DNA of 32,000 bases from Ktedonobacterales bacterium (lineage in GTDB: Bacteria > Chloroflexota > Ktedonobacteria > Ktedonobacterales > JADMIN01). The stretch is taken from positions 2,670,001 through 2,702,000 of the forward strand of contig CP126532.1 in NCBI GenBank assembly GCA_030167145.1, in the 5' to 3' direction. The position numbers and the translations under genes are program-made. The notes beneath the pieces are model-generated. The model was not told the DNA's origin. It ran no database searches and saw only the letters and a list, made by a program, of their open reading frames with translations. Positions 3,763-28,532 of the stretch are shown here, one piece after another (position 1 is the first letter of the stretch; each line of letters opens with the position of its first letter).

Positions 3763-6069
3763 TCAGCCGCCGAGGGCCTGCGCACGCCGCTCCGCCTCGC
3801 GCGCCTCGCCATTGCGCCCCAGTGCGCGCAATGCGACAGCCTTGTTGCGCAACGCCAGGGCAAAGGTTGGGTCGAGGGCCAGTGCCCGGTCGTAACAGGA
3901 AAGCGCCTCACCATAACGATTGAGGTTGAGGAGCGCGTTGCCTTTGTTGACCCAACTGGGGACGTAATTGGGGTTGAGCGCCAGCGCACGATCATAGGCC
4001 CCAATCGCCTCGTCATAGCGATGAAGTTCGAGGAACGTGTTACCCTTGTTGTACCAGGCAAGGGCATACGTGGGATCGAGAGCGATGGCGCGGTCATAGG
4101 CAGCCAGACCTTCGCTGTTGCGATTGAAGCGGGTGAGCATATTCCCTCTGCCGTTCCATGCTTCCACGAACGTCTGGTCAATGGCCAGGGCGCGGTCGAA
4201 GTCGGCCAGCGCTTCACTGTTGCGCTGAAGCATGGCGAGCACATTGCCCTTGTTGACCCAGGCAGGAGCGTAGTTAGGATCGAGGGCGAGTGCGCGGTCA
4301 TAGGCGGCGAGCGCTTCGCTGGTTTGCTGGATATCGCGTAAGGTGTTGCCCTTGTTGTACCAGACGGGAACATCGTTCGGGGTCAGGCTGAGTGCGCGGT
4401 CGTAGGCGGCAATCGCCTCGTTATAGCGCCGGAGGTCGGTCAGCGCCGCGCCTTTGTTGCTCCACATCGGCCCATTGTTCGGGTCCAGCGCCAGCGTCCG
4501 GTCGTAGGCGGCGAGCGCTTCCGCAGGGCGATTGAGGCCGAGAAGCGCATTGCCCTTGGCACCCCACGTGTCGGCGTTATTGGGATCCAGCGCCAGCGCG
4601 CGGTCGAGCATGGGCAGCGCTTCAGTGTAGCGCTGAGCCTTGTTGAGCGTGTTGCCCTTGTTGTACCACACCATCGCGCGATTGGGATCCAGCGCCAGCG
4701 CGCGGTCATACGATAACAGCGCCTCATCATAGCGCTGGAGGTTGGTGAGCGCGAGACCCTTGACATTCCAGGCGTCAACGTAGGCAGGGTCAATGGAGAG
4801 GGATTGTTCGTTGGCAACGACCGCCTCAGCGGGACGGTTGAGCCGGAGGAGCGCGCTCCCCTTATTGTACCAGGCGAGTTTGTTGTCGGGAGCGAGAGTA
4901 CAGGCGCGCTCAGCTGCGGCCAGCGCCTCGTCATAGCGGTGGAGATCATTGAGGGCAGAGGCCTTGTTGTTCCAGGCAGCGGCGTAGGCAGGGTCGAGCG
5001 TGGTAGCGCGCTCGTAGGCGCTGAGCGCCTCGTCATAGCGATTCAGTTCATTGAGCGCGGTGCCCTTGTTGTACACGGCGAGCGCACTGTTCGGGTCGAG
5101 GTCAAGAGCATGATCGTAGGCGGCGATAGCCTCGTCGGTGCGTTTGAGGCTGAGGAGGGCGGTGCCTTTGCTAATCCAAGCAAACGCATAGGTTGGATCA
5201 ATAGTGGTGGCATGCTCGCCAACGGCGAGGGCTTCCTCGTGACGGTTGAGACTATCGAGGATAGCGGATTTATTGTTCCAGGCGACGGCAAAATTGGGGT
5301 CGAGCGCGATGGCGCGTTCGCTGGCGGCGAGCGCCTCATCATACCGCTTCAGGCTATAAAGCGCGAAGCCTTTGTCGGCCCAGGTTACCGCGTCAGTCGG
5401 CCGGAGAGCTAGTGCGCGGTCGTAGGCTTCGAGCGCCTCATCATACCGCTTCACCGCATCGCGCGCATAGCCCAGATTGAACCAGGCGCTGAAGTTCTTG
5501 GAAGCGAGGCCAGTAGCCTGCTCGAAAAGCGGGATAGCCTCCTCGTAGCGATTCTGCGCGCCAAGCGCCTTGCCGCGCTCGATCAAATCCGAGACCGCCT
5601 CGGCGCTCGCGGCGGGCTGAGGAGCAGTTGCGGGTGCTTCGCCCGGCGCGGTGAGCGCGAGCATTCGCAGCGTGCGCGTGATCGCCTCCTGCGGCGGGAA
5701 CGGCTGGTAGTTCGCCCGATCCACGCGACGAAAGTCTTCAAGGTAGATCAGATTGTCGAGATCGTCCGGATCCAGTTGCGCCGCGATGATCGGCAACACG
5801 ATGCGACTGGGGTCGCGCGTATAGAACTTGTACGCCCACGAACATTCGCGTGGCACCCACTCTGAGGCGACCGCCGCTTTCGAGAGCACCACCACGAAGA
5901 CGGGTCGCAGGCGTATCTGGCGCGTGATCTCGCTGAGCAGTTCGCCCGCGCCCAGGCTATGTTCGTCGTACCAGACATCCGCGCCCGCCGCGCGCAGCGC
6001 GCGCACCACGGCGTCAGAATATGCCTTATCGGCGGAGCTATGGCTCAGAAAGATCTGCATCTGGCTCAT
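3763..6069 (-). CDS. TIR domain protein fused to about 18 tetratricopeptide repeats (TIR-TPR, long paralog)
   Basis: 768-aa ORF with GGGAGG upstream of the ATG. Residues 1 to about 125 read MSQMQIFLSHSSADK...GADVWYDEHSL...VFVVVLSKAAVASEWVPRECSWA, a TIR_2-like pattern with Glu75 in the W..xE motif (nt 5845-5847). An Ala/Pro-rich linker follows. After it I count 17 full and 2 partial consecutive 34-aa units of the form YDEALAAYDRALALDPNxAxAWxNKGxALxxLxR. Confidence 0.85.
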   Translation of the reverse strand: MSQMQIFLSHSSADKAYSDAVVRALRAAGADVWYDEHSLGAGELLSEITRQIRLRPVFVVVLSKAAVASEWVPRECSWAYKFYTRDPSRIVLPIIAAQLDPDDLDNLIYLEDFRRVDRANYQPFPPQEAITRTLRMLALTAPGEAPATAPQPAASAEAVSDLIERGKALGAQNRYEEAIPLFEQATGLASKNFSAWFNLGYARDAVKRYDEALEAYDRALALRPTDAVTWADKGFALYSLKRYDEALAASERAIALDPNFAVAWNNKSAILDSLNRHEEALAVGEHATTIDPTYAFAWISKGTALLSLKRTDEAIAAYDHALDLDPNSALAVYNKGTALNELNRYDEALSAYERATTLDPAYAAAWNNKASALNDLHRYDEALAAAERACTLAPDNKLAWYNKGSALLRLNRPAEAVVANEQSLSIDPAYVDAWNVKGLALTNLQRYDEALLSYDRALALDPNRAMVWYNKGNTLNKAQRYTEALPMLDRALALDPNNADTWGAKGNALLGLNRPAEALAAYDRTLALDPNNGPMWSNKGAALTDLRRYNEAIAAYDRALSLTPNDVPVWYNKGNTLRDIQQTSEALAAYDRALALDPNYAPAWVNKGNVLAMLQRNSEALADFDRALAIDQTFVEAWNGRGNMLTRFNRNSEGLAAYDRAIALDPTYALAWYNKGNTFLELHRYDEAIGAYDRALALNPNYVPSWVNKGNALLNLNRYGEALSCYDRALALDPTFALALRNKAVALRALGRNGEAREAERRAQALGG

Positions 6070-7733: not shown

Positions 7734-7906
7734 TATGGCGGGCGGGGGGAGTGCTAGACTGCGGGGGAGCCGTTACACACGATGTGCCCCTGCGAAAATG
7801 GGGGATGGGTGCATCGAGAAGTAGACGCATTATGGTAGCATACGCATGAGTTTCATGTGGTACGATCAAGTGTGCCCTGTTGCTGGATGCGTCCCCGCGC
7901 CGCGTG

Positions 7907-7934
7907 GTTTCGTGAGGTAGGTTTCGTGAGGTAG
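7907..7934. repeat. 14-bp tandem duplication (gtttcgtgaggtag x2) directly upstream of the HAD hydrolase start
   Basis: Read directly from the sequence. Copies lie at 7907-7920 and 7921-7934. Each copy contains a GAGG Shine-Dalgarno-like core. The ATG is at 7939. Confidence 0.85.
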
Positions 7935-13364: not shown

Positions 13365-13389
13365 TGAGGCAGTTATGAGCGAAACCGAT

Positions 13390-13428
13390 AATAACGACAA
13401 TAACGACAATAACGACAACAACGACAAC
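13390..13428. repeat. 9-bp tandem repeat (aataacgac), about 4.3 copies
   Basis: Read directly from the sequence. Copies lie at 13390-13398, 13399-13407 and 13408-13416, with a variant aacaacgac at 13417-13425 and a partial copy after it. Confidence 0.9.
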
Positions 13429-13451
13429 CATCAGGGGCGAGCGGGTTCCTA

Positions 13452-13495
13452 TATCCATCATGTATCCATCATGTATCCATCATGTATCCATCATG
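13452..13495. repeat. 11-bp tandem repeat (tatccatcatg), 4 perfect copies
   Basis: Read directly from the sequence. Copies lie at 13452-13462, 13463-13473, 13474-13484 and 13485-13495. The array ends 20 nt before the HicB-like start codon. Confidence 0.95.
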
Positions 13496-13707: not shown

Positions 13708-13962
13708 CCCACCCCCGACTGAGCCGTCCCACGGCCAGCGGGCGACGTGGACGTCATCCCTACAGCCGGGCAAGCGGTGAGCGCGGAGCGCGCGCCAACA
13801 TAGTGCTGCTCTCATCATCCCCCTTGCCTATCTCGAACGCATGTCCTATACTCACCACAGACCTACTACTCCCACGGTCAGCCAGAACACGGCGCCGCTC
13901 CCTCCCACACCCCAGAGGAGCGGCGTCCTCCATTTCCAACACAAACGGCCAACAATCACATG

Positions 13963-14215
13963 CGGCGAAAACGGCGAAAACGGCGAAAACGGCGAAAAAA
14001 TGGGAAATCGAAAAATGGGAAATCGAAAAATGGGAAATCGAAAAATCGGCAGAATCGGCAACTGCACTCCTGCGAAAAACCGGCCAAATCGGCAACTCCG
14101 GCAACTGCCTCGATGCGAAATTACGGCGAAAACGGCGAAAAATCTCCCCCACTTCCAGTCAATACCCGTCATTCGCTCCCACCCAACCGCAAAAATCGGC
14201 AGAATCGGCAACTGC
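13963..14215. repeat. Composite short-tandem-repeat region: 9-bp x4, 15-bp x3 and a 25-bp exact duplicate 150 bp apart
   Basis: Read directly from the sequence. The unit cggcgaaaa occurs 4 times at 13963-13998 and twice more at 14124-14141. The unit aaaatgggaaatcga occurs 3 times at 13997-14041. The 25-mer aaaaatcggcagaatcggcaactgc occurs at 14041-14065 and 14191-14215. The motif cggcaact occurs 4 times. Confidence 0.9.
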
Positions 14216-14554
14216 CATCTCGCGAAATCGCCCATTTCGGCCACCGCATTCCGGACGGAATTACCCGCGGCCTTCAGGCCGAGAGCCTCCTATACCGCCC
14301 CTCCCGCCCTTCGTGCGTACCTCCGGCATTCATGCCCTTACGCCTGTGCTCCAGCCATGTATGGCCGAGGCGTGTGCGCCACGCGCGGTTGTGCGGCAAG
14401 CGTATACTGCGAGAGTGATGAACGTACAGCGTTGGTGGCATGGGACACGCTATGTATGTAGGTAGGTGTTTCACGTGCAACCACTTTGGCCGCCACGGCG
14501 TAGTTGTTTTCGAAATCATGACACCGGGCCAGGAAGCATTCTGGGGAGCGAGCG

Positions 14555-17587: not shown

Positions 17588-17608
17588 TTTCCCGTCTGTT
17601 TCGCAGCC

Positions 17609-17640
17609 AGCAGCCCTCCGAGCCGTTCCGAAGAGGGGGG
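17609..17640. repeat. Small palindromic (REP-like) element, single-unit form
   Basis: The sequence gcagccctccgagccgttccgaagagggggg has complementary ccctc/gaggg arms. It is closely related to the core of the element embedded at 23034-23146. It lies in the intergenic region after the methyltransferase stop. Confidence 0.6.
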
Positions 17641-17723
17641 TCCGGCGGACGCCCGTGATCCGGTGCGGTGGGGCGGACATTCCTGTCTGCCCGGCGCGCC
17701 CGCTAGAATCCGTTCCGCCAATT

Positions 17724-17775: not shown

Positions 17776-18549
17776 ATGGCATCTTCGACCTGTCCAAATT
17801 GTAGGCAGCCGGTAGCGGCGGGGCAGAGCGCTTGCCCGGCGTGTGGCTACCCGCTGAGCAGTGGTTCCAGCAGCGCGCTCGCATCGGTGCTAGCGCCGCT
17901 GCCAGTGCGCAAGCAGCGCCGCCAGTTTCCGGTGTTGTTCGTGGCAATCGCGCTGATCGTGGTCTGTGTACTGGGGTCGGGCGGTGTGCTCGTCTATAAC
18001 GTGATCCAGAACAGGAATGTGTTGTATTCGAATGCGATGACGGGGCTGGCAAACGACGCCTCCACCTGGCCAGACGACGCGAACTGCTTTGGCCGGTCGG
18101 ATGGCTACCACATCACTGCGGCGGATGCGTGCTTTCCCTTGCAATCGCCGTATCAGGATGAGAACATTTCGGTGGACGTGAAGCGCATCAGCGGGGATGG
18201 CGAGGGCTTCTTTGGCATCGCCTTTCGGCTGCTCGATCCAGCGCAATACGGCAAGGGCAACTACTACTTCTTTGGCATAGACACCAGCGACGACTGGTCC
18301 GTCTCCAAAGTGGTCAACTCAACGCCGTCGTATCTGCTGCATCCAACCGCCAGCGACGCCATCCATACCGGCGCGAACAGCGTCAACCATCTGGAAGTGC
18401 GCGTCCATCTCGACACCTATCAGTTCTTCATCAACGGGCAGAAGGTCGGCCAGACCGAAGACTCCACGTACCTGCTGGGCCAGTATGGGCTGGTGGGCGC
18501 GGATGGCATGGAGGTCGTCTTCACCGACTTCCAGGTCACGCGCGGCTAG
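17776..18549 (+). CDS. Zinc-ribbon, single-pass membrane protein with a beta-rich (lectin/DUF1080-like) C-terminal domain
   Basis: This is ORF 17758..18549. The likely start is MASSTCPNCRQPVAAGQSACPACG, a double CxxC ribbon. A TM helix (FPVLFVAIALIVVCVLGSGGVLV) follows. The C-terminal part reads GFFGIAFRL...YYFFGID...NHLEVRV...YQFFINGQKV. The fold call is weak. Confidence 0.6.
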   Translation: MASSTCPNCRQPVAAGQSACPACGYPLSSGSSSALASVLAPLPVRKQRRQFPVLFVAIALIVVCVLGSGGVLVYNVIQNRNVLYSNAMTGLANDASTWPDDANCFGRSDGYHITAADACFPLQSPYQDENISVDVKRISGDGEGFFGIAFRLLDPAQYGKGNYYFFGIDTSDDWSVSKVVNSTPSYLLHPTASDAIHTGANSVNHLEVRVHLDTYQFFINGQKVGQTEDSTYLLGQYGLVGADGMEVVFTDFQVTRG

Positions 18550-20989: not shown

Positions 20990-23900
20990 TCAGCGCTCGC
21001 GGATGCCTGGACGTATCTCCGCGCGGCTCATCTCGCGCACCAGCTCGCGCCGCCCCTCCCATGCGGCTATCGCTGCTTCGCGCGACGAGACACCGAGCTT
21101 GGCGTAGATATGACCCATGTGCGTATCTATGGTGCGCTCAGACCTGTCAAATCGCGTGGCGATTTCTATTTTGCTCAAACCCTGGCGCAACAGGTGCAGA
21201 ACCTCCCGCTCTCGCGGCGTCAGGGGTTGAGAGAGCAACTCGCTACGGCCCTTCGCACGCCGCTGCGTGGCCCGCTCGTTGGCGGACGCGACCTGGGCAA
21301 CGAGCGCGTGTGCGGCGGCGACGGCTTCATCCAACGGCAGCGCGCGTCCACTGGCATGCATGCCGATAAAGTTCGCGGCGCCGAGCCGTTTGCGCAGTGT
21401 CGCCACCAGGGGCGCGTACCAATCATCATCCATTTGATGTCGCGGCGCAGCCATTGCCGAGCGCTGCCCGTCCGCCGCGCCGAAGATGTGCGCCGCCTGC
21501 GCAGGCTGGCCCATCGCCGCGATGACATGCGCAACGCCTTCCAGCGACTCGACGACCAAAATCCGGCACTGGGCACGCGCGTAGATCTCCGCCGCCTCGT
21601 CATAGCGCGCCAGCGCGCCGATGTAATCGCGCTGCGCATAGGCAACCAGGGCGCGCGTGGCGAGGGCGTCACCCATCCCACGCAGGTCTTCGAGCGCGCG
21701 GAAGCGCGCCGCGCTTTCTTCCAGATTTTGTATTGCGAGCGCGGCGTGCCCAAGCCGGTGGGAGGTGCGGCCCAGATTGGTCTGCGACATGGCGATACCG
21801 CGCAAATCTTCTATGCCGTGGAAGAGCGCCAGCCCTTCGGCATAGAGCGCTTCGGCACGCGCCAGGTCATGCTGTTTCGCCAGCACATCGGCGAGATTGC
21901 TCAGCGACAGGGCAATACGCCGCTTATCCTCGGGCCGGTTGCCAAGCTGGCGCGCGAGCGCCAGCGACAGTTCAAGCAGCTTGAGCGACTGCGGCAATTG
22001 ATCGCGATATTCCGCGACACCGCCAAGCAGCGAGTAGGCGTCGCTCATGCTCAGGCTGTCGCCCAGCCTCTCGGCGAGCGCCAGACACTCCTCACCGGCG
22101 GTCTGCGCGACATCGAGATCGCCGCGCACCATGGCCAGATGTCCGGCCGCATAGAGCGCCGCAATGCGTGCGCGACGGTAGTCGAGGCTGGCGCCTGGTT
22201 CGCGAGCGAGCATCGCTTCAAGCCAGGTATATCCCTCGCTCAATTGGCCGCGATTGTACCACAATCGCCACATGGCGCTCGCCAGCCACAGCCCCACCTC
22301 GGCAGAACAATGGGTGTATGTCCAGCGCAACGCCGCCAGCAGATTGCCGTACTCCGCTTTCAGTCGTAGCAGCCAGGTCTGCTGTTGCGCGCTGGTCAGA
22401 TGCGGCCTAGCGCGCTGGGCGAGCGCCTGAAACCAGGTCGCATGCCGCTGGCGTAGCCGGTCGGCCTCACGTGCTTCGCGCAATTTCTCGTCCGCATACT
22501 GCCGGATCGGCTCAAGAAAACGATAGCGCCGCTCAGCGTTCTGTGTTTCAACTTCGACCAGCGCCGCATTGACCAGCAATTCGAGCAGGCGCAGGACGTG
22601 CGAGCGCTGGATGCCGTAGCCAGCGCAGATCGCTTCCGCTGCCTCGATATCCCAGCCACCCGCGAAAATCGCCAGCCGCCGGAAGAGAACACGCGCTTGC
22701 CCCTTGAGCAGTTCGTGGCTCCAGCCAATCGTCTCGTGCAGGGTTTTCCGGCGTGGCAGCCGCCCGGAGCGCGTGGGCAGCAGCGCAAAGCAGTCGTCAA
22801 GACGGGCGGCGATACGCGCGACATCCAGCAGCTTGACACGTGTGGCCGCCAGTTCGATGGCGAGCGGTATCCCGTCGAGCCGCGCGCAGATCTCCGCCAC
22901 TGAACGCGCGTTCTCCTGGGTGAGGGCGAAACCGGGCTGGCTGAGCGCGGCGTGTTCGCAGAAAAGCCGCACCGACTCATTTTCACGCAAGTGCGAGAGC
23001 GTGGGCAGCGGGTCCAGAGTGGGCAGCGCCAGCGAGGGCAAGCGGAGCGCAGCCCCTCCGAGCGCGCAGCCCCTCTGAGCGCGCAGCCCCTCTGAGCCGT
23101 TCCGAGGAGGGGTTCCGAAGAGGGGTTCTGAGGAGGGCAAGCGGAGGTTCGCGCCAGGCTCATCGCTGGCAGGCCCACGACTGGTGATCAGGATGCCGAT
23201 TCGTGGGCAAGCGCCGAGCAGTTCGCTGCCAAGCTGCACGCAGGCATCTATCAGATGCTCACCGTTATCCAGTATCAGCAGCAGGCGTTGCCTGCCCAGC
23301 CAGGTCGCCAGCGATGTGGTAAGCGCGCGTCCTTGTTCTTCATGGATGCCAAGCGCCACCGCCACTGCTTGCGGTATCTGCGATGGCTCGGAGACTGTCG
23401 CCAGTTCGACGATATGTATCCCATCGGGATAGGATGCGCGCAGATCGTCGGCCACCTGAATGGCAAGCTGTGTCTTGCCGCTGCCGCCCGCGCCCCAGAG
23501 CGTGAGCATACGCGCCGCGGTAAGCGCCTGACACGCGGCGGCGCGTTCGTGTACGCGGCCAATGAACGGGGTGCGCCGCTCCGCCAGACGCCGGTCCAGA
23601 CCACGCCAGCGCGGGGAATCATCATGAGCGGTTGCCGCTTCCGCTTCCGGCGCCGCTGCTGTTGCCACTGCTTTGCGCCGTCGTATAGACGTGCGTGGCG
23701 CGGCGCTGGCGGTGGGGTGCGCGCTCGTTGGCTTCGGCGTGGGAGCGACAGGATGTGATGTGCGGATCGGCCTCGGCTTCGGCAGCACCTTTCCTCCCAC
23801 GATATCCTCGTATAAGCGCCTGGTCTCCGTCGCCAGTTCGGCACTGGACAACTCCGGCCCCGCTGGCAGCTCCATCACATCGTATTGGTTCACGCGGCGC

Positions 23901-24634
23901 AGCGCCTCAACCAACTGGTGATACTGGCCTCGCGCCTGATCTGGCTTGCCGTCGAGCGCATACAGGCGCATCAAATCTCTCCGCGCCGTCTGGCGGGTGG
24001 CATCCCGCGCGATGGCCTCGTGCAGGCTCGCGATAGCCTCATCACGCTCGCCATGTTTTTCTAAGAATGCCGCTTGCTGCTCAAGCAGGTGGAGGTATTT
24101 GTCGTGCAGTGTGGTACGGTCGTATCGGGTCAGCACCGCCATCGTTCCGTCGTGCGCGTCTTCGGGCAGCAGATCGCCGGTGTAGAGATCGCGTGCCGCA
24201 CGATAGGCATCGCGGCTGGGGTGTAGATGTGCCCTGTCGCAGGCCTTCGCAAAGGCGGCGACATCGGTCCAGCAGGGATATGCGCTGCTGCCCAGAACTA
24301 AAATGCCCTCGTGTTCCACGCGCAGATACATCCAGGGAGTTCCTCTGCGATGTCCTGGCTCAAGCACGCGGCGCAGATCGCCTTTGACGCCGTTCAAGCT
24401 ATTCTCTCGGTCCGAGACCGCATGGTCGCCTTCCTCGGGCCAGAGCCAGGCGCTCGCCGTATCGCGGCTCAGCCGGTAGTGGCGGGCCAGCGCCAGAGCC
24501 TTGAGCAACGTTTTCGCATTGCGCTGACGCCAGGTCGCACCTTCGATCACCCGCGACCCCACACACACCCGCAAGCCACCGAGCAAATAGATACGCAGCG
24601 TCTTATCATCCTGGGGAAGGGTAGCCACCGCCAT
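20990..24634 (-). CDS. STAND-class transcriptional regulator: OmpR/SARP winged helix + BTAD + NB-ARC ATPase + TPR + C-terminal LuxR HTH
   Basis: 1214-aa ORF. The N-terminus is LRIYLLGGLRVCVGSRVIEGATWRQRNAKTLLKALAL (SARP), followed by a BTAD-like helical region. The Walker A is LWGAGGSGKTQLA, the Walker B is LLLILDNGEH, and the sensor motif is ILITSR. A long TPR-like helical repeat region follows. The C-terminus is LTPREREVLHLLRQGLSKIEIATRFDRSERTIDTHMGHIYAKLGV (LuxR/FixJ HTH). Confidence 0.85.
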   Translation of the reverse strand: MAVATLPQDDKTLRIYLLGGLRVCVGSRVIEGATWRQRNAKTLLKALALARHYRLSRDTASAWLWPEEGDHAVSDRENSLNGVKGDLRRVLEPGHRRGTPWMYLRVEHEGILVLGSSAYPCWTDVAAFAKACDRAHLHPSRDAYRAARDLYTGDLLPEDAHDGTMAVLTRYDRTTLHDKYLHLLEQQAAFLEKHGERDEAIASLHEAIARDATRQTARRDLMRLYALDGKPDQARGQYHQLVEALRRVNQYDVMELPAGPELSSAELATETRRLYEDIVGGKVLPKPRPIRTSHPVAPTPKPTSAHPTASAAPRTSIRRRKAVATAAAPEAEAATAHDDSPRWRGLDRRLAERRTPFIGRVHERAAACQALTAARMLTLWGAGGSGKTQLAIQVADDLRASYPDGIHIVELATVSEPSQIPQAVAVALGIHEEQGRALTTSLATWLGRQRLLLILDNGEHLIDACVQLGSELLGACPRIGILITSRGPASDEPGANLRLPSSEPLFGTPPRNGSEGLRAQRGCALGGAALRLPSLALPTLDPLPTLSHLRENESVRLFCEHAALSQPGFALTQENARSVAEICARLDGIPLAIELAATRVKLLDVARIAARLDDCFALLPTRSGRLPRRKTLHETIGWSHELLKGQARVLFRRLAIFAGGWDIEAAEAICAGYGIQRSHVLRLLELLVNAALVEVETQNAERRYRFLEPIRQYADEKLREAREADRLRQRHATWFQALAQRARPHLTSAQQQTWLLRLKAEYGNLLAALRWTYTHCSAEVGLWLASAMWRLWYNRGQLSEGYTWLEAMLAREPGASLDYRRARIAALYAAGHLAMVRGDLDVAQTAGEECLALAERLGDSLSMSDAYSLLGGVAEYRDQLPQSLKLLELSLALARQLGNRPEDKRRIALSLSNLADVLAKQHDLARAEALYAEGLALFHGIEDLRGIAMSQTNLGRTSHRLGHAALAIQNLEESAARFRALEDLRGMGDALATRALVAYAQRDYIGALARYDEAAEIYARAQCRILVVESLEGVAHVIAAMGQPAQAAHIFGAADGQRSAMAAPRHQMDDDWYAPLVATLRKRLGAANFIGMHASGRALPLDEAVAAAHALVAQVASANERATQRRAKGRSELLSQPLTPREREVLHLLRQGLSKIEIATRFDRSERTIDTHMGHIYAKLGVSSREAAIAAWEGRRELVREMSRAEIRPGIRER
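23034..23146. repeat. 99-bp palindromic repeat element embedded in-frame in the regulator gene, bounded by 14-bp direct repeats
   Basis: Read directly from the sequence. The direct repeat gagggcaagcggag lies at 23034-23047 and 23133-23146, exactly 99 bp apart. Between the copies are a 3 x 17-bp array gcgcagcccctcYgagc (23047-23097) and a 3 x 13-bp array ttcYgaRgagggS (23100-23138). The two arrays carry complementary cccctc and gagggg cores. Confidence 0.85.
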
Positions 24635-25123: not shown

Positions 25124-25329
25124 ACAACAGCGCCTCTCGCGTGTTGCGTCACAGTGCGTCTCGCCCCGGTTCGCGCATGGCTTCGTTGCCAGAGCCGGAT
25201 GCGAGGCGCATTCTGTGTACCCGTTGAGTTATGTCGTCGTATCCTGGTGTAGTCTTTTGTATATCGTCTCGCGTGGCGGGGAACTCGCCCTATGTCACCG
25301 GTTTAGCTGTATGCCGTCTGGGCCACCGC

Positions 25330-25746
25330 GTGGAACATGATGAACGCGCCAAACGTATTCCCAGTAATCAGCGCTTTCGGCAGGGTCAGCGGCTGCGCTC
25401 ATCACGAGACTTTCAGCGCGTGCGCCGCCAGGGTCGCCATCTGAGCGGCGAATGCCTTACGCTTGGCTATGCGCGCCAGGGCAAAGACGCCGGAGAGACG
25501 CGGGTTGGCTTCTCGGTGAGCAAGCGGGTCGGCAATGCGGTCGTGCGAAACCGCGTCAAGCGGCGGCTGCGCGAAATCACGCGCCGTATGCTTGCTGATC
25601 TGCCGGCGGGGTGGGATATCGTGTTCAGCGCGAAACCTGCCGCGGCGGCAGCGGACTACGCGACGTTGGCTGCCAGCATCGGCGATCTCTTTCGCCGCGC
25701 CGGCTGGCGGAACGAAGCGCGGGTATCACAGACAATGGTGAAGTAA
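25330..25746 (+). CDS. rnpA: Ribonuclease P protein component
   Basis: This is ORF 25231..25746. The conserved core reads RLRSSRDFQRVRRQG...VGFSVSKRVGNAVVRNRVKRRLRE. I place the start at the in-frame GTG at 25330, giving about 138 aa. The start is uncertain and could be as far upstream as 25231. Confidence 0.85.
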   Translation: MEHDERAKRIPSNQRFRQGQRLRSSRDFQRVRRQGRHLSGECLTLGYARQGKDAGETRVGFSVSKRVGNAVVRNRVKRRLREITRRMLADLPAGWDIVFSAKPAAAAADYATLAASIGDLFRRAGWRNEARVSQTMVK

Positions 25747-25758
25747 TCGAGGCATGTC

Positions 25759-25971
25759 GTGAAATATGTAGGCATGGGGCTGATCCGAATCTATCAGCGC
25801 ACCTTTTCGGTGATCTTGCCACCGAGTTGCCGCTTTACGCCTTCGTGCTCGCAGTACGGCTACGAAGCCGTCGAGAAGTACGGGTTGTTGCGCGGCGGTT
25901 GGATGGCGATCAAGCGTATCGGACGGTGCCATCCGTTTTATCATGGGAATCTCTACGACCCCGTCCCCTAA
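25759..25971 (+). CDS. yidD: Membrane protein insertion efficiency factor YidD
   Basis: 70-aa ORF. The sequence [53 protein letters not shown] is the canonical YidD motif set. Confidence 0.9.
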
Positions 25972-26189
25972 CCAAGAGGACGACATGCGAGCGGCGCCTG
26001 GTCGCGGCGCGGGATGTGATGTGATGTACAATGCGCAGCATCATCCTCTGCCGTGGCATCTGGAACGAGCGCAGGGAGGTGGCGCGCCGGCGAGGCGCGC
26101 GAGTTCGAGCAATTGACGCGCCGGCGCGTCGCGCAGTGCGTGGGGAGGCAACCCGCGCGAGCAGACGCCGCAGGGGAGGATAGACATCC

Positions 26190-27668
26190 GTGGCATTCTT
26201 ACAGCCAATAGGCGATTTGTTTCACGTCCTATTTTACGAGCCGATCTTTAACGTCCTCATGCTCATCAACTGGACGGTAGATCACATTATCCCTGGCATC
26301 TCGTTTGCCATCCCGATCATCATTCTGACGCTGCTGATGCGCGTCTGCCTCATTCCACTCGTTCGCAAGCAGTTGCGCTCGCAGAAGGTGATGCAAGAGC
26401 TACAGCCCAGGCTCGCCGAACTCAAGCGCCAGTATGCGGGCGATCAGGCAGGCATGCTTCAGGCGCAGCAGGCGCTCTTCAAGGAGCATGGCTATAGCCC
26501 GATTTCGGGGTGTCTGCCGCTGCTCATTCAGATGCCCTTCCTCTATGCGCTCTACTATTCACTGTTTGAGGTGCTCAATAAGAACCCCGCGACTGAGACC
26601 GTCGCGCATCATATCCAGCGTATCAACAATGACATCTATCCGTTCCTGCCACACGTCACCGTCTTGCCGCCGACGCACTTCCTCTGGATGAACCTCAGCG
26701 CCCCCGATCCGTTGCACATCCTGCCCCTGCTCGCTGGCCTGCTGACCTTCGTGCAACTCCGCATGGCGATACCGCACCGCAAGAAGCCCGCGCCCGGCAC
26801 GCCAACCGACGCGACCTCGCAGGCGACGAAGATGACGCAATACCTGATGCCGGTTATGACCTTCATCTTCGGCCTCAACTTCCCCGCTGGTCTGCCGCTC
26901 TACTGGTCCGTCAGCACCGGTTTCTCGGCCGTGCAGCAGTATTTCATCGGCGGCTGGGGATCGCTCTTCGTCGGCATCCCCGGTATGGAACGCTTCGTCC
27001 CCGAACCGAAGGATGCCCTGCCGCCGCCCGCGTCACGCGCCCGCCCCGGCACCGCCGCAGCGATTCGCGCAAGCACAGCGGGAGCCGCACCGCCACCAGC
27101 CCAGGCGGATTCTGGTGGCGGCGGGTTCTTCAAGCGCCTGCGCGACCAGATGTCCGCCGCGCAACAGGTGGCCGTCGCACAGCAGCAGGCGCGCGAACAA
27201 GGCGCGGGCGGCAAGAATGCCAAAAATGGCACTGGTGCGGGTGGGCGCGGTGCGGTGATCGTGGACAGCACCGCAACGGTGAGCGGCAATGGCAACGGCG
27301 CGACGCAGCCGAAAGCCGCGCCACGCCCCAAACGCAGTAGCGCACGCGATAGCGGTCCAATGCTGGTGAAGCCCTCACAGAGCAGCGCCACGAGCGCCAA
27401 GAAGGAACTGCCCGAACAGGCAATTGCGCGCGATGCGGTGGATGCGACGCCGGATGTTGGCAGCGAGCGGCCGGAAAAAGAGGTCGTGCGCGCCGCCAGT
27501 GGCGCAGGCTCTGCCAGCACAGCCAAAGGCAGCAGCGCCGGGCGCGTCTCGTCCAGCCAGAATACGCGCCCTGCGGCGCAGCCCGCGCGCAAAGGCCAGA
27601 ATCAGGGCCAGGCCAAGGGGTCAGCATCCGCGCGTAATCGTAGCGGTCGCCCGAAGGGAGGCAAATAA
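26190..27668 (+). CDS. yidC: YidC/Oxa1-family membrane insertase (short form) with a long low-complexity basic C-terminal tail
   Basis: 492-aa ORF. The core motifs are LLMRVCLIPLVRKQLRSQKVMQELQPRLAELKRQY, GCLPLLIQMPFLYALY and PAGLPLYWSVSTGFSAVQQY. A tail of about 230 aa rich in A/G/S/P/K/R follows. Confidence 0.9.
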   Translation: MAFLQPIGDLFHVLFYEPIFNVLMLINWTVDHIIPGISFAIPIIILTLLMRVCLIPLVRKQLRSQKVMQELQPRLAELKRQYAGDQAGMLQAQQALFKEHGYSPISGCLPLLIQMPFLYALYYSLFEVLNKNPATETVAHHIQRINNDIYPFLPHVTVLPPTHFLWMNLSAPDPLHILPLLAGLLTFVQLRMAIPHRKKPAPGTPTDATSQATKMTQYLMPVMTFIFGLNFPAGLPLYWSVSTGFSAVQQYFIGGWGSLFVGIPGMERFVPEPKDALPPPASRARPGTAAAIRASTAGAAPPPAQADSGGGGFFKRLRDQMSAAQQVAVAQQQAREQGAGGKNAKNGTGAGGRGAVIVDSTATVSGNGNGATQPKAAPRPKRSSARDSGPMLVKPSQSSATSAKKELPEQAIARDAVDATPDVGSERPEKEVVRAASGAGSASTAKGSSAGRVSSSQNTRPAAQPARKGQNQGQAKGSASARNRSGRPKGGK

Positions 27669-28532
27669 GTGGAAGGCGCAGTCGAAGCTTCGGGAAAATC
27701 TATCGAAGACGCGATTCTCCAGGCGCTGGCGCGGCTGGGGCGCAATCGCGATGAGGTCGAAATACAAGTGTTACAGGAACCGAGCCGCGGCACCCGTGGC
27801 ATGGGCGCGCGTGAGGCACGTGTGCGCGTCTATCCCAAGGCAGGCCGCGCTGCTCGCCCCGCGCCAGAGCCGCTCGCCGACGCGGACGACTATGCGGACG
27901 ACTACACACCAGAGGACGCTCGCGATGAAGAGACGCTCGACGCGGAGTATGCCGAGGGCTACGAGGCCGACGCCGATGCCTATCCGGTGATCGAAGAACT
28001 GACGATCACACCTCTGCGCGAGCTTCTGCCAGAAGACGCCAGCATCGAAGAATTCGCCGTCGAAGCGCTGCGGCAAATCCTCGGCCATATGGGCGTGCGT
28101 GCGGCCATCGAGGTCAACGAACCGCCGGAAGGCGAAGAAGAAAATGAAGATACGCCGCTGATTCTAAACATCCGTAGCGACGATCAAACCACCCTTAGCC
28201 TCTTGATTGGGCGGCGCGGCGAAACACTCGCGTCGCTGCAATTGCTGGTCAATCTGGTGGTCAGCAAGCAAACTGGGCATCGCGAGCATGTCATCGTGGA
28301 CGCCGAAGACTACCGCGTGCGTCGCGAACATAATCTGCGCTCGATGGCGCTGCGCGTGGCGAATCAGGTCCGGCGCTCAGGCCATCCCATCACGCTTGAG
28401 GCCATGCCGCCCAATGAACGTCGCATCATCCATATGGTGCTGGCCGAGACTGGCGACATCGCCACCGAAAGCACCGGCGAAGGCGACCAGCGCCGTGTGG
28501 TCGTCTCGCTGAAGCGTCCGGTTCGCGCGTAG
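27669..28532 (+). CDS. jag: RNA-binding protein Jag/KhpB (Jag_N + KH + R3H)
   Basis: 287-aa ORF. The GTG start directly abuts the yidC stop. The N-terminus is EASGKSIEDAILQALARLG (Jag_N). The KH-like segment is LIGRRGETLASLQLLVN. The R3H motif is MPPNERRIIHMVL. Confidence 0.85.
   Translation: MEGAVEASGKSIEDAILQALARLGRNRDEVEIQVLQEPSRGTRGMGAREARVRVYPKAGRAARPAPEPLADADDYADDYTPEDARDEETLDAEYAEGYEADADAYPVIEELTITPLRELLPEDASIEEFAVEALRQILGHMGVRAAIEVNEPPEGEEENEDTPLILNIRSDDQTTLSLLIGRRGETLASLQLLVNLVVSKQTGHREHVIVDAEDYRVRREHNLRSMALRVANQVRRSGHPITLEAMPPNERRIIHMVLAETGDIATESTGEGDQRRVVVSLKRPVRA

Follow-up and report, generated by a model that had tools for sequence, protein, structure and literature searches.

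Rickettsia palindromic elements (RPEs) are ~100–150 bp long and fall into some ten families; in their host, an alphaproteobacterial parasite, each genome has dozens of them inserted in genes. [quoted passage not shown] The element considered here is a short hairpin with expanded arms, lying in-frame within a gene for a STAND (signal transduction ATPase with numerous domains) regulator of a Ktedonobacterales bacterium (Chloroflexota). The stretch analyzed, referred to below as the window, is 32,000 nt long (assembly GCA_030167145.1, contig CP126532.1, positions 2,670,001–2,702,000 of the forward strand). The favored explanation, with a probability of roughly 0.7, is that a dispersed hairpin of ~30 nt was copied in-frame into the regulator gene, that its arms were amplified by slippage, and that the result was tolerated. 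In this account a stretch of selfish or accidental DNA has, on a small scale, become a protein loop, and the closest behavioral analogue is the RPEs.

As with the RPEs, a palindromic repeat is found both intergenically and in-frame inside a protein gene, where it preserves the host frame and adds a peptide missing from the homologues. In contrast to them the core is only ~30 nt, or five times shorter, a single genic site is known, from a soil bacterium of the Chloroflexota, and each arm has been amplified on its own. Most documented cases of small palindromic repeats colonizing genes in-frame are from Rickettsia, and one in a free-living soil bacterium of the Chloroflexota would be an example from far outside that group. 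Repetitive extragenic palindromic sequences (REPs) are extragenic by definition, have a conserved GTAG (GT[AG]G) head, and insert without duplication; a genome with REPs typically has tens to hundreds of them and a cognate Y1 transposase. The present element resembles these and bacterial interspersed mosaic elements (BIMEs) in being a short GC-rich imperfect palindrome (within the 20–40 nt of REPs, with a 7–9 bp stem), downstream of genes or between convergent genes and clustered with other hairpins. It differs in that the focal copy is inside an open reading frame (ORF), the other copies being intergenic, in the 14-nt repeats that flank it, and in lacking a GTAG head: the motif starts with GCGCAG, and the GTAG heads in the same genome belong to a different palindrome family. 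MITEs are usually 50–400 bp, with terminal inverted repeats and duplications of 2–10 bp. Direct repeats around the genic copy and a presence/absence difference between close relatives are shared with them, but here the whole element is ~30 nt (core 30–32 nt), its only inverted repeat is the 7–9 bp stem, and the intergenic copy has no duplication. Finally, variable-number tandem repeats (VNTRs) in coding regions normally have units divisible by three, and the units of contingency loci are 1–7 nt. Slippage changes copy number within a coding region under a reading-frame constraint in these, as it probably does in the present locus, with the difference that here two adjacent arrays, of 17- and 13-nt units, must change together.

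The features of the genic locus, in window coordinates, are as follows.

20990–24634, minus strand: host STAND regulator gene, from its translation, precomputed Pfam families, and a fold model.
23034–23047, no strand given: direct repeat copy 1, GAGGGCAAGCGGAG, from a repeat search; read on the coding strand, it specifies the second of the two LRLPS, which occupies the native beta-strand.
23047–23097: A array, three 17-nt units GCGCAGCCCCTCYGAGC (Tandem Repeats Finder, TRF: period 17, 3.0 copies, 97% matches).
23081–23112: central canonical hairpin motif, formed where the last A unit meets the first B unit, GCGCAGCCCCTCTGAGCCGTTCCGAGGAGGGG, matching the motif of contigs L017, L021, and L024 and the intergenic copy.
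23099–23137: B array, three 13-nt units GTTCYGARGAGGG (TRF: period 13, 3.0 copies, 88% matches).
23133–23146: direct repeat copy 2, GAGGGCAAGCGGAG, encoding the first LRLPS, in the disordered loop.

A preliminary description of the window had reported 14-bp direct repeats 99 bp apart, three 17-bp followed by three 13-bp units, and a peptide added before a second LRLPS. The positions of the repeats agree between the sequence as read and the repeat search, the units agree with TRF, and the peptide with the translation of 20990–24634(−), which across the insert reads GANLRLPSSEPLFGTPPRNGSEGLRAQRGCALGGAALRLPSLALP. The two 14-nt copies are 99 nt apart from start to start. Under a first-order Markov model a window would have just 0.045 exact 14-mers that recur within 150 nt, so the direct repeat is beyond chance. 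In terms of the hairpin motif, an A unit supplies the flank and stem on the left together with the first bases of the loop, and a B unit the last bases of the loop and the stem on the right; one A and one B unit together give the 32-nt hairpin GCGCAG-CCCCTCY-GAGCCGTTCCGA-RGAGGGG, also written with Y = C and R = G. At the left junction the array and the direct repeat overlap by 1–3 bases. At the right, copy 2 opens with GAGGG, which is also the last 5 bases of the final B unit, that is, of the right stem of the element.

All 18 distant homologues aligned (34–41% identity) have a gap of exactly 33 columns at the insert site, between TSRxxxG and the strand xxGExxWxVPxLSxP. With the insert and one copy of the direct repeat removed, the sequence reads TSRGPASDEPGANLRLPSLALP, equal in length to the family's TSREALGVAGEVRWRVPSLSLP. 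By this alignment the 33 codons are an insertion relative to the protein family, as first proposed, and not ordinary conserved sequence. The full-length host protein was then searched against a 5.8-billion-protein collection, and the sole close orthologue among the matches listed was P0002 (locus L002; GCA_035277445.1, contig DATEKM010000206.1), at 89% amino acid identity. It has both 14-nt repeats intact and an insert of 2 × 17 plus 2 × 13 nt units, 30 nt (10 codons) shorter than the 3 × 17 plus 3 × 13 nt of the window. The two genes share 92% nucleotide identity, with dS (synonymous divergence) 0.18 and dN (nonsynonymous divergence) 0.05; their ratio of 0.27 indicates that the regulator gene is under purifying selection. 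Because both direct repeats and the insert are present in L002, the comparison places the insertion before the split of the two lineages and the change in repeat number after it. The proposed expansion from a simpler element is likewise borne out, in that one A plus one B unit is the 32-nt motif found intergenically and the two alleles have 2 + 2 and 3 + 3 units. The loop at the A|B junction, GAGYCGTTCCGA, is kept in both alleles, so the difference between them is one 17-nt and one 13-nt step rather than one contiguous 30-nt event. Two simpler routes between the alleles were considered and set aside. Loss of the inner hairpin layer in one contiguous 30-nt deletion (3 + 3 versus 2 + 2) would rebuild the loop as GAGCGGTTCC, and the orthologue has the canonical GAGTCGTTCC; quasi-palindrome template switching as an equalizer of the arms is not compatible with B units that are not complements of the A units.

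The length of the insert is 9 + 17a + 13b nt, where a and b are the numbers of A and B units, and the frame is read through only if a = b (mod 3). All other combinations stop at residue 534–751, before the TPR and LuxR domains. Both known alleles, 2 + 2 and 3 + 3, obey this rule, an unusual one in that 17 + 13 = 30 and both arms must change together, and they capture the element at two different sizes. Together with the dN/dS of 0.27, this bears out the earlier suggestion that the insert was tolerated because it kept the reading frame. A location in a surface loop had also been suggested, and an AlphaFold2 model of residues 339–745 (40-sequence alignment; mean predicted local distance difference test score, pLDDT, of 83.7) agrees. 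Residues 489–524 have pLDDT below 50 and no secondary structure; this predicted disordered segment is preceded by the sensor I strand (ILITSR) and followed by a strand of residues 528–532 that includes the second LRL copy. According to the model the downstream copy of the duplicated target fills the structural role, so that the upstream copy and the element would loop out, and the insert is predicted to be at a structurally permissive surface position.

The host regulator has 1214 amino acids, with a BTAD/SARP N-terminus, a P-loop nucleotide-binding oligomerization domain (NOD) of NB-ARC type, HTH_77, TPR, and a LuxR/GerE C-terminus. Precomputed Pfam families for it are PF03704, PF13401, PF25872, PF13424, and PF00196, and its homologues carry PF00931. 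Its translation includes Walker A (GAGGSGKT), Walker B (LLLILDNGEH), and sensor I (ILITSR). By these motifs and by Foldseek, the NTPase domain has the STAND/NB-ARC layout, a P-loop NOD with Walker A/B and sensor I followed by a helical ARC/winged-helix portion. Foldseek with the model of residues 339–745 matched Apaf-1 (TM score 0.61), ZAR1, NRC2, and MalT; a sequence search of the Protein Data Bank (PDB) with the same residues gave no match. The protein is identical to NCBI OJF49_002579 of the Ktedonobacterales metagenome-assembled genome (MAG), and the Joint Genome Institute (JGI) record of the source contig, which is 5.07 Mb, is 3300045419 Ga0494333_323. The insert alters nothing known about STAND regulators. 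It is a concrete example of non-coding repeat DNA becoming a protein loop, an evolutionary curiosity rather than a new system.

A simpler copy of the motif is intergenic in the window, in a segment with the following features.

17588–17695, plus strand: 108-nt intergenic segment, from pairwise alignment with contig L039; it begins right after the stop codon of a methyltransferase gene.
17609–17640, plus strand: single-unit intergenic relative of the motif, CAGCAGCCCTCCGAGCCGTTCCGAAGAGGGGG (23/25 identity, 17614–17638 versus 23088–23112).
17636–17654, plus strand: second hairpin abutting the motif, GGGGGTCCGGCGGACGCCC, a single mismatch away from a palindrome family with a GTAG head that has two copies immediately beyond the window.

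The preliminary description had already pointed to a single-unit relative at 17609–17640, and the 23/25 match, to the A|B junction and starting 27 nt past the methyltransferase stop codon, agrees. The 108-nt segment is missing from the close relative L039, a Logan contig in which the methyltransferase is 90% identical and the flanks and downstream promoter region ~95%. No duplication of the empty-site sequence surrounds the segment, whereas the genic copy is flanked by the 14-nt repeat, 5 nt of which overlap the element end. Outgroup synteny (kinase, methyltransferase, miaA, trpF) without the 220-aa gene of this region gave no polarity, as gain or loss, for the 108-nt segment. That gene (window 17887–18549, MASSTCPNCRQ...) is between the methyltransferase gene and miaA and is also in L039. 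It is absent in more distant relatives (L040, L042–L051), in which 12 nt separate the methyltransferase gene from miaA and the STAND gene does not adjoin trpF. In L042, L043, L049, and L050 a 434-aa gene with RRXRR/HNH domains is found between miaA and trpF (e.g., L042 9080–10384); it is absent in L040 and the window and looks like a mobile insertion of HNH-endonuclease type.

The GTAG-headed palindrome family, GTAGGGGCGTCCG(CC/GT)GGACGCCCGT, is represented at L033 17351–17375 and 19739–19763 (37644–37668 and 40032–40056 on the window scale), with a degenerate copy at window 17633–17657. This makes three copies in 41 kb, all on the plus strand and each occupying a short spacer that is downstream of a gene on the minus strand.

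For other copies of the hairpin, public collections of species-representative genomes and metagenomes, both without the source genome, were scanned with the core pattern CCTCNGAGNCGTTCCGANGAGG. The species-representative genomes gave four matches, about the chance expectation, and only L005 (binned as Micromonosporaceae), with the motif between convergent ORFs, resembles the motif beyond the pattern. The metagenomes gave 26 loci; six are one conserved coding gene, and most of the others are similar only in the scanned pattern. Three contigs from tropical forest soil metagenomes (L017, L021, and L024) have the GCGCAG prefix and match 9, 9, and 8 of the 10 unconstrained upstream bases; a random site in these loci would reach 8/10 or better with a probability of 0.0014. 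The motif is therefore not unique to the two loci of the window; had it been so, this would have told against the initial proposal. In L017 it is downstream of a gene for a solute-binding protein whose organism-named homologues are all Ktedonobacterales, and the contig looks Ktedonobacterales-like. In L021 the motif is in a spacer between genes; the kinase of that contig, at only 40% identity to the window kinase, is uninformative on taxonomy. Presence/absence polymorphism at orthologous sites is seen twice, between the window and L039 and between L017 and two contigs, L035 and L037, whose syntenic spacers are without the motif, which in these alignments behaves as an indel. Half-units are duplicated in other copies as well, as an additional A-like half in L005 (period 26) and, in L014, as an additional A-like arm that follows the motif. 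A scan of the viral contig collection IMG/VR for the motif found none. Rfam gave nothing at the gathering threshold for the whole window and nothing at E ≤ 1 for both loci and seven motif-bearing contigs; the sole row returned, mir-1910 at E = 0.87, is meaningless. The 32-nt hairpin motif is undescribed and absent from Rfam, and the GTAG-headed palindrome family is also flagged here in this lineage.

A single A + B unit folds with a 7–9 bp stem and a 12-nt loop, at −12 to −19 kcal/mol and z from 0 to −2.2; the central motif at 23081–23112 has a 9-bp stem and −15.3 kcal/mol. In L017, L021, and L024 the GCGC prefix pairs with a downstream GCGY to give an 11-bp interrupted stem. The hairpin is real, though not extraordinary at such GC content. 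The expanded array had been described as a nested hairpin former, and this could not be upheld: taken as a whole, the 141 nt of the array are no more stably folded than their dinucleotide shuffles (z = +1.19 as RNA, +0.66 as DNA).

The sequence of events that would best account for these observations begins with a hairpin from a dispersed, mostly intergenic family of some Ktedonobacterales, which would have been copied into the coding sequence of the regulator, landing in the nucleotide-binding domain, in the loop that joins the sensor-I (ILITSR) strand to the strand after it. The incoming copy, ending in GAGGG, may have been rejoined at the nearest upstream GAGGG of the gene, which would generate the 14-nt duplication; the ancestral event would then amount to +39 nt (13 codons), made up of 25 new bases and the 14-nt target duplication. 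Rejoining by a microhomology-guided template switch or repair is preferred over a staggered transposase cut because of the shared GAGGG, the 1–3 base overlap at the left, and the lack of duplication at the intergenic copy. Each arm would subsequently have been amplified separately by slippage, between GAGC...GAGC in 17-nt steps and between GTTCC...GTTCC in 13-nt steps. Since a single step shifts the frame, purifying selection would leave only alleles with equal numbers (mod 3), such as 2 + 2 and 3 + 3, and the 33 encoded residues would form a disordered surface loop without required function. The original interpretation, as an REP/MITE-like element or a slippage-generated expansion of one, kept in frame, is in its testable parts supported.

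Several points weigh against this account. Going from 2 + 2 to 3 + 3 takes two events with a frameshifted intermediate, which is awkward under selection, and the template-switch origin hangs on a single overlap of 5 nt. Just two copies of the motif are present in 41 kb of the source genome. None was found in ~150 kb from further related contigs (Chloroflexota/Ktedonobacterales, with much redundancy), so the family would be patchy; these 17 related loci have neither the GTAG palindrome nor the 108-nt segment. The hairpin energy is not exceptional compared with shuffles. No other protein cluster representative has the insert peptide: a search with the 38-aa peptide against 1.84 billion representatives gave no match, where single units (~10 aa) and insert-bearing non-representatives would escape.

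Other origins can be weighed on much the same evidence. The insert could be a true MITE- or REP-like element, moved by a transposase or REP-associated tyrosine transposase (RAYT) encoded elsewhere, in which case the 14-nt repeat would be a real target-site duplication and the amplification of the arms secondary. The exact flanking of the insert by direct repeats in both lineages, the polymorphism at orthologous intergenic sites, and the GTAG-headed REP-like palindromes nearby in the same genome are what such an element might leave. Its absence of empty-site duplication at the 108-nt intergenic segment is harder to fit, as are a core of 30 nt, below known MITE size, and a repeat that at 14 nt is long for a target-site duplication. 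Insertion of the REP/RAYT kind (IS200/IS605-type) leaves no duplication at all, and the first 5 nt of the repeat coincide with the element end, as rejoining at microhomology predicts; transposition is accordingly considered unlikely. Growth of the array in place, from host-gene sequence that slipped or was duplicated, would make the intergenic resemblance secondary or coincidental. At either end the arrays do share 1 to 5 nt with the direct repeat, their units have CTC/GAGGG in common with the target, and the abundance of other perfect short tandem repeats in the window points to a slippage-prone genome. This local origin is nevertheless quite improbable: the 32-nt A|B motif recurs, well in excess of chance, in unrelated surroundings in this genome and in three metagenome contigs, the other copies are in intergenic spacers, and none of the 25 unique inserted bases can be derived from the flanking gene sequence.

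A further rival reading gives the array a role. Slippage by 17 or 13 nt could toggle the regulator as at a contingency locus, or the hairpins could be a binding or processing site in mRNA or DNA. As neither unit length is divisible by three, a single step truncates the protein at residue 534–751, ahead of the TPR and LuxR output domains; copy number differs between the lineages, and k-mer assembly breaks at the array. Against this, both known alleles are in frame, and there are only these two; no out-of-frame allele or heterogeneity within a population was seen, and the insert has no promoter or terminator signal and no Rfam match, making a functional switch very doubtful. A broader version, in which the hairpin is an undescribed mobile or self-copying element of Ktedonobacterales that enters by hairpin-guided template switching, grows arm by arm, and through its 17/13-nt arrays toggles the STAND regulator within populations, is similarly improbable. 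An artefact arising at a GC-rich repeat during assembly or sequencing finds some support in the MAG origin of the sequence and in a Logan contig (L034, run SRR22113990) that ends inside the array, exactly at the A/B junction. That separate assembly nevertheless has three identical 13-nt B units, the protein is the same in the JGI and NCBI records, and a different MAG has the same in-frame architecture. An array constructed by assembly is unlikely on the strength of L034 and the second MAG, and an artefact of either kind is barely credible. Copying of a dispersed hairpin into the gene, followed by slippage in its arms, is retained as the best account.

The window overall is unusually rich in exact short tandem repeats. 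Adjacent arrays of CGACAATAA (4.7 copies, 93% matches) and TATCCATCATG (4.0 copies, perfect) are found at 13386–13495, inside a called ORF of 42 aa in an AT-rich stretch. At 13963–14141 is an iteron-like cluster of CGGCGAAAA (four copies, perfect), AAAAATGGGAAATCG (3.4 copies, perfect), and then two more of CGGCGAAAA, inside a called ORF of 206 aa (13841–14461) with no Pfam match. There are also perfect 14-nt tandem repeats of CTTCGCGCACTCAA (3.6 copies, 1309–1358) and GGTTTCGTGAGGTA (2.1 copies, 7906–7934).

Directly adjoining the STAND gene are rnpA, yidD, yidC, and jag (25231–28532), a cluster that is near the replication origin in many bacteria. At the other side of the window, positions 4397–5351, within an ORF on the minus strand (3763–6069), have repeats with a period of 102 nt and exact 14–27-mers common to the units. 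This period corresponds to three 34-residue units, and the ORF may encode a TPR-type repeat protein with recently duplicated units.

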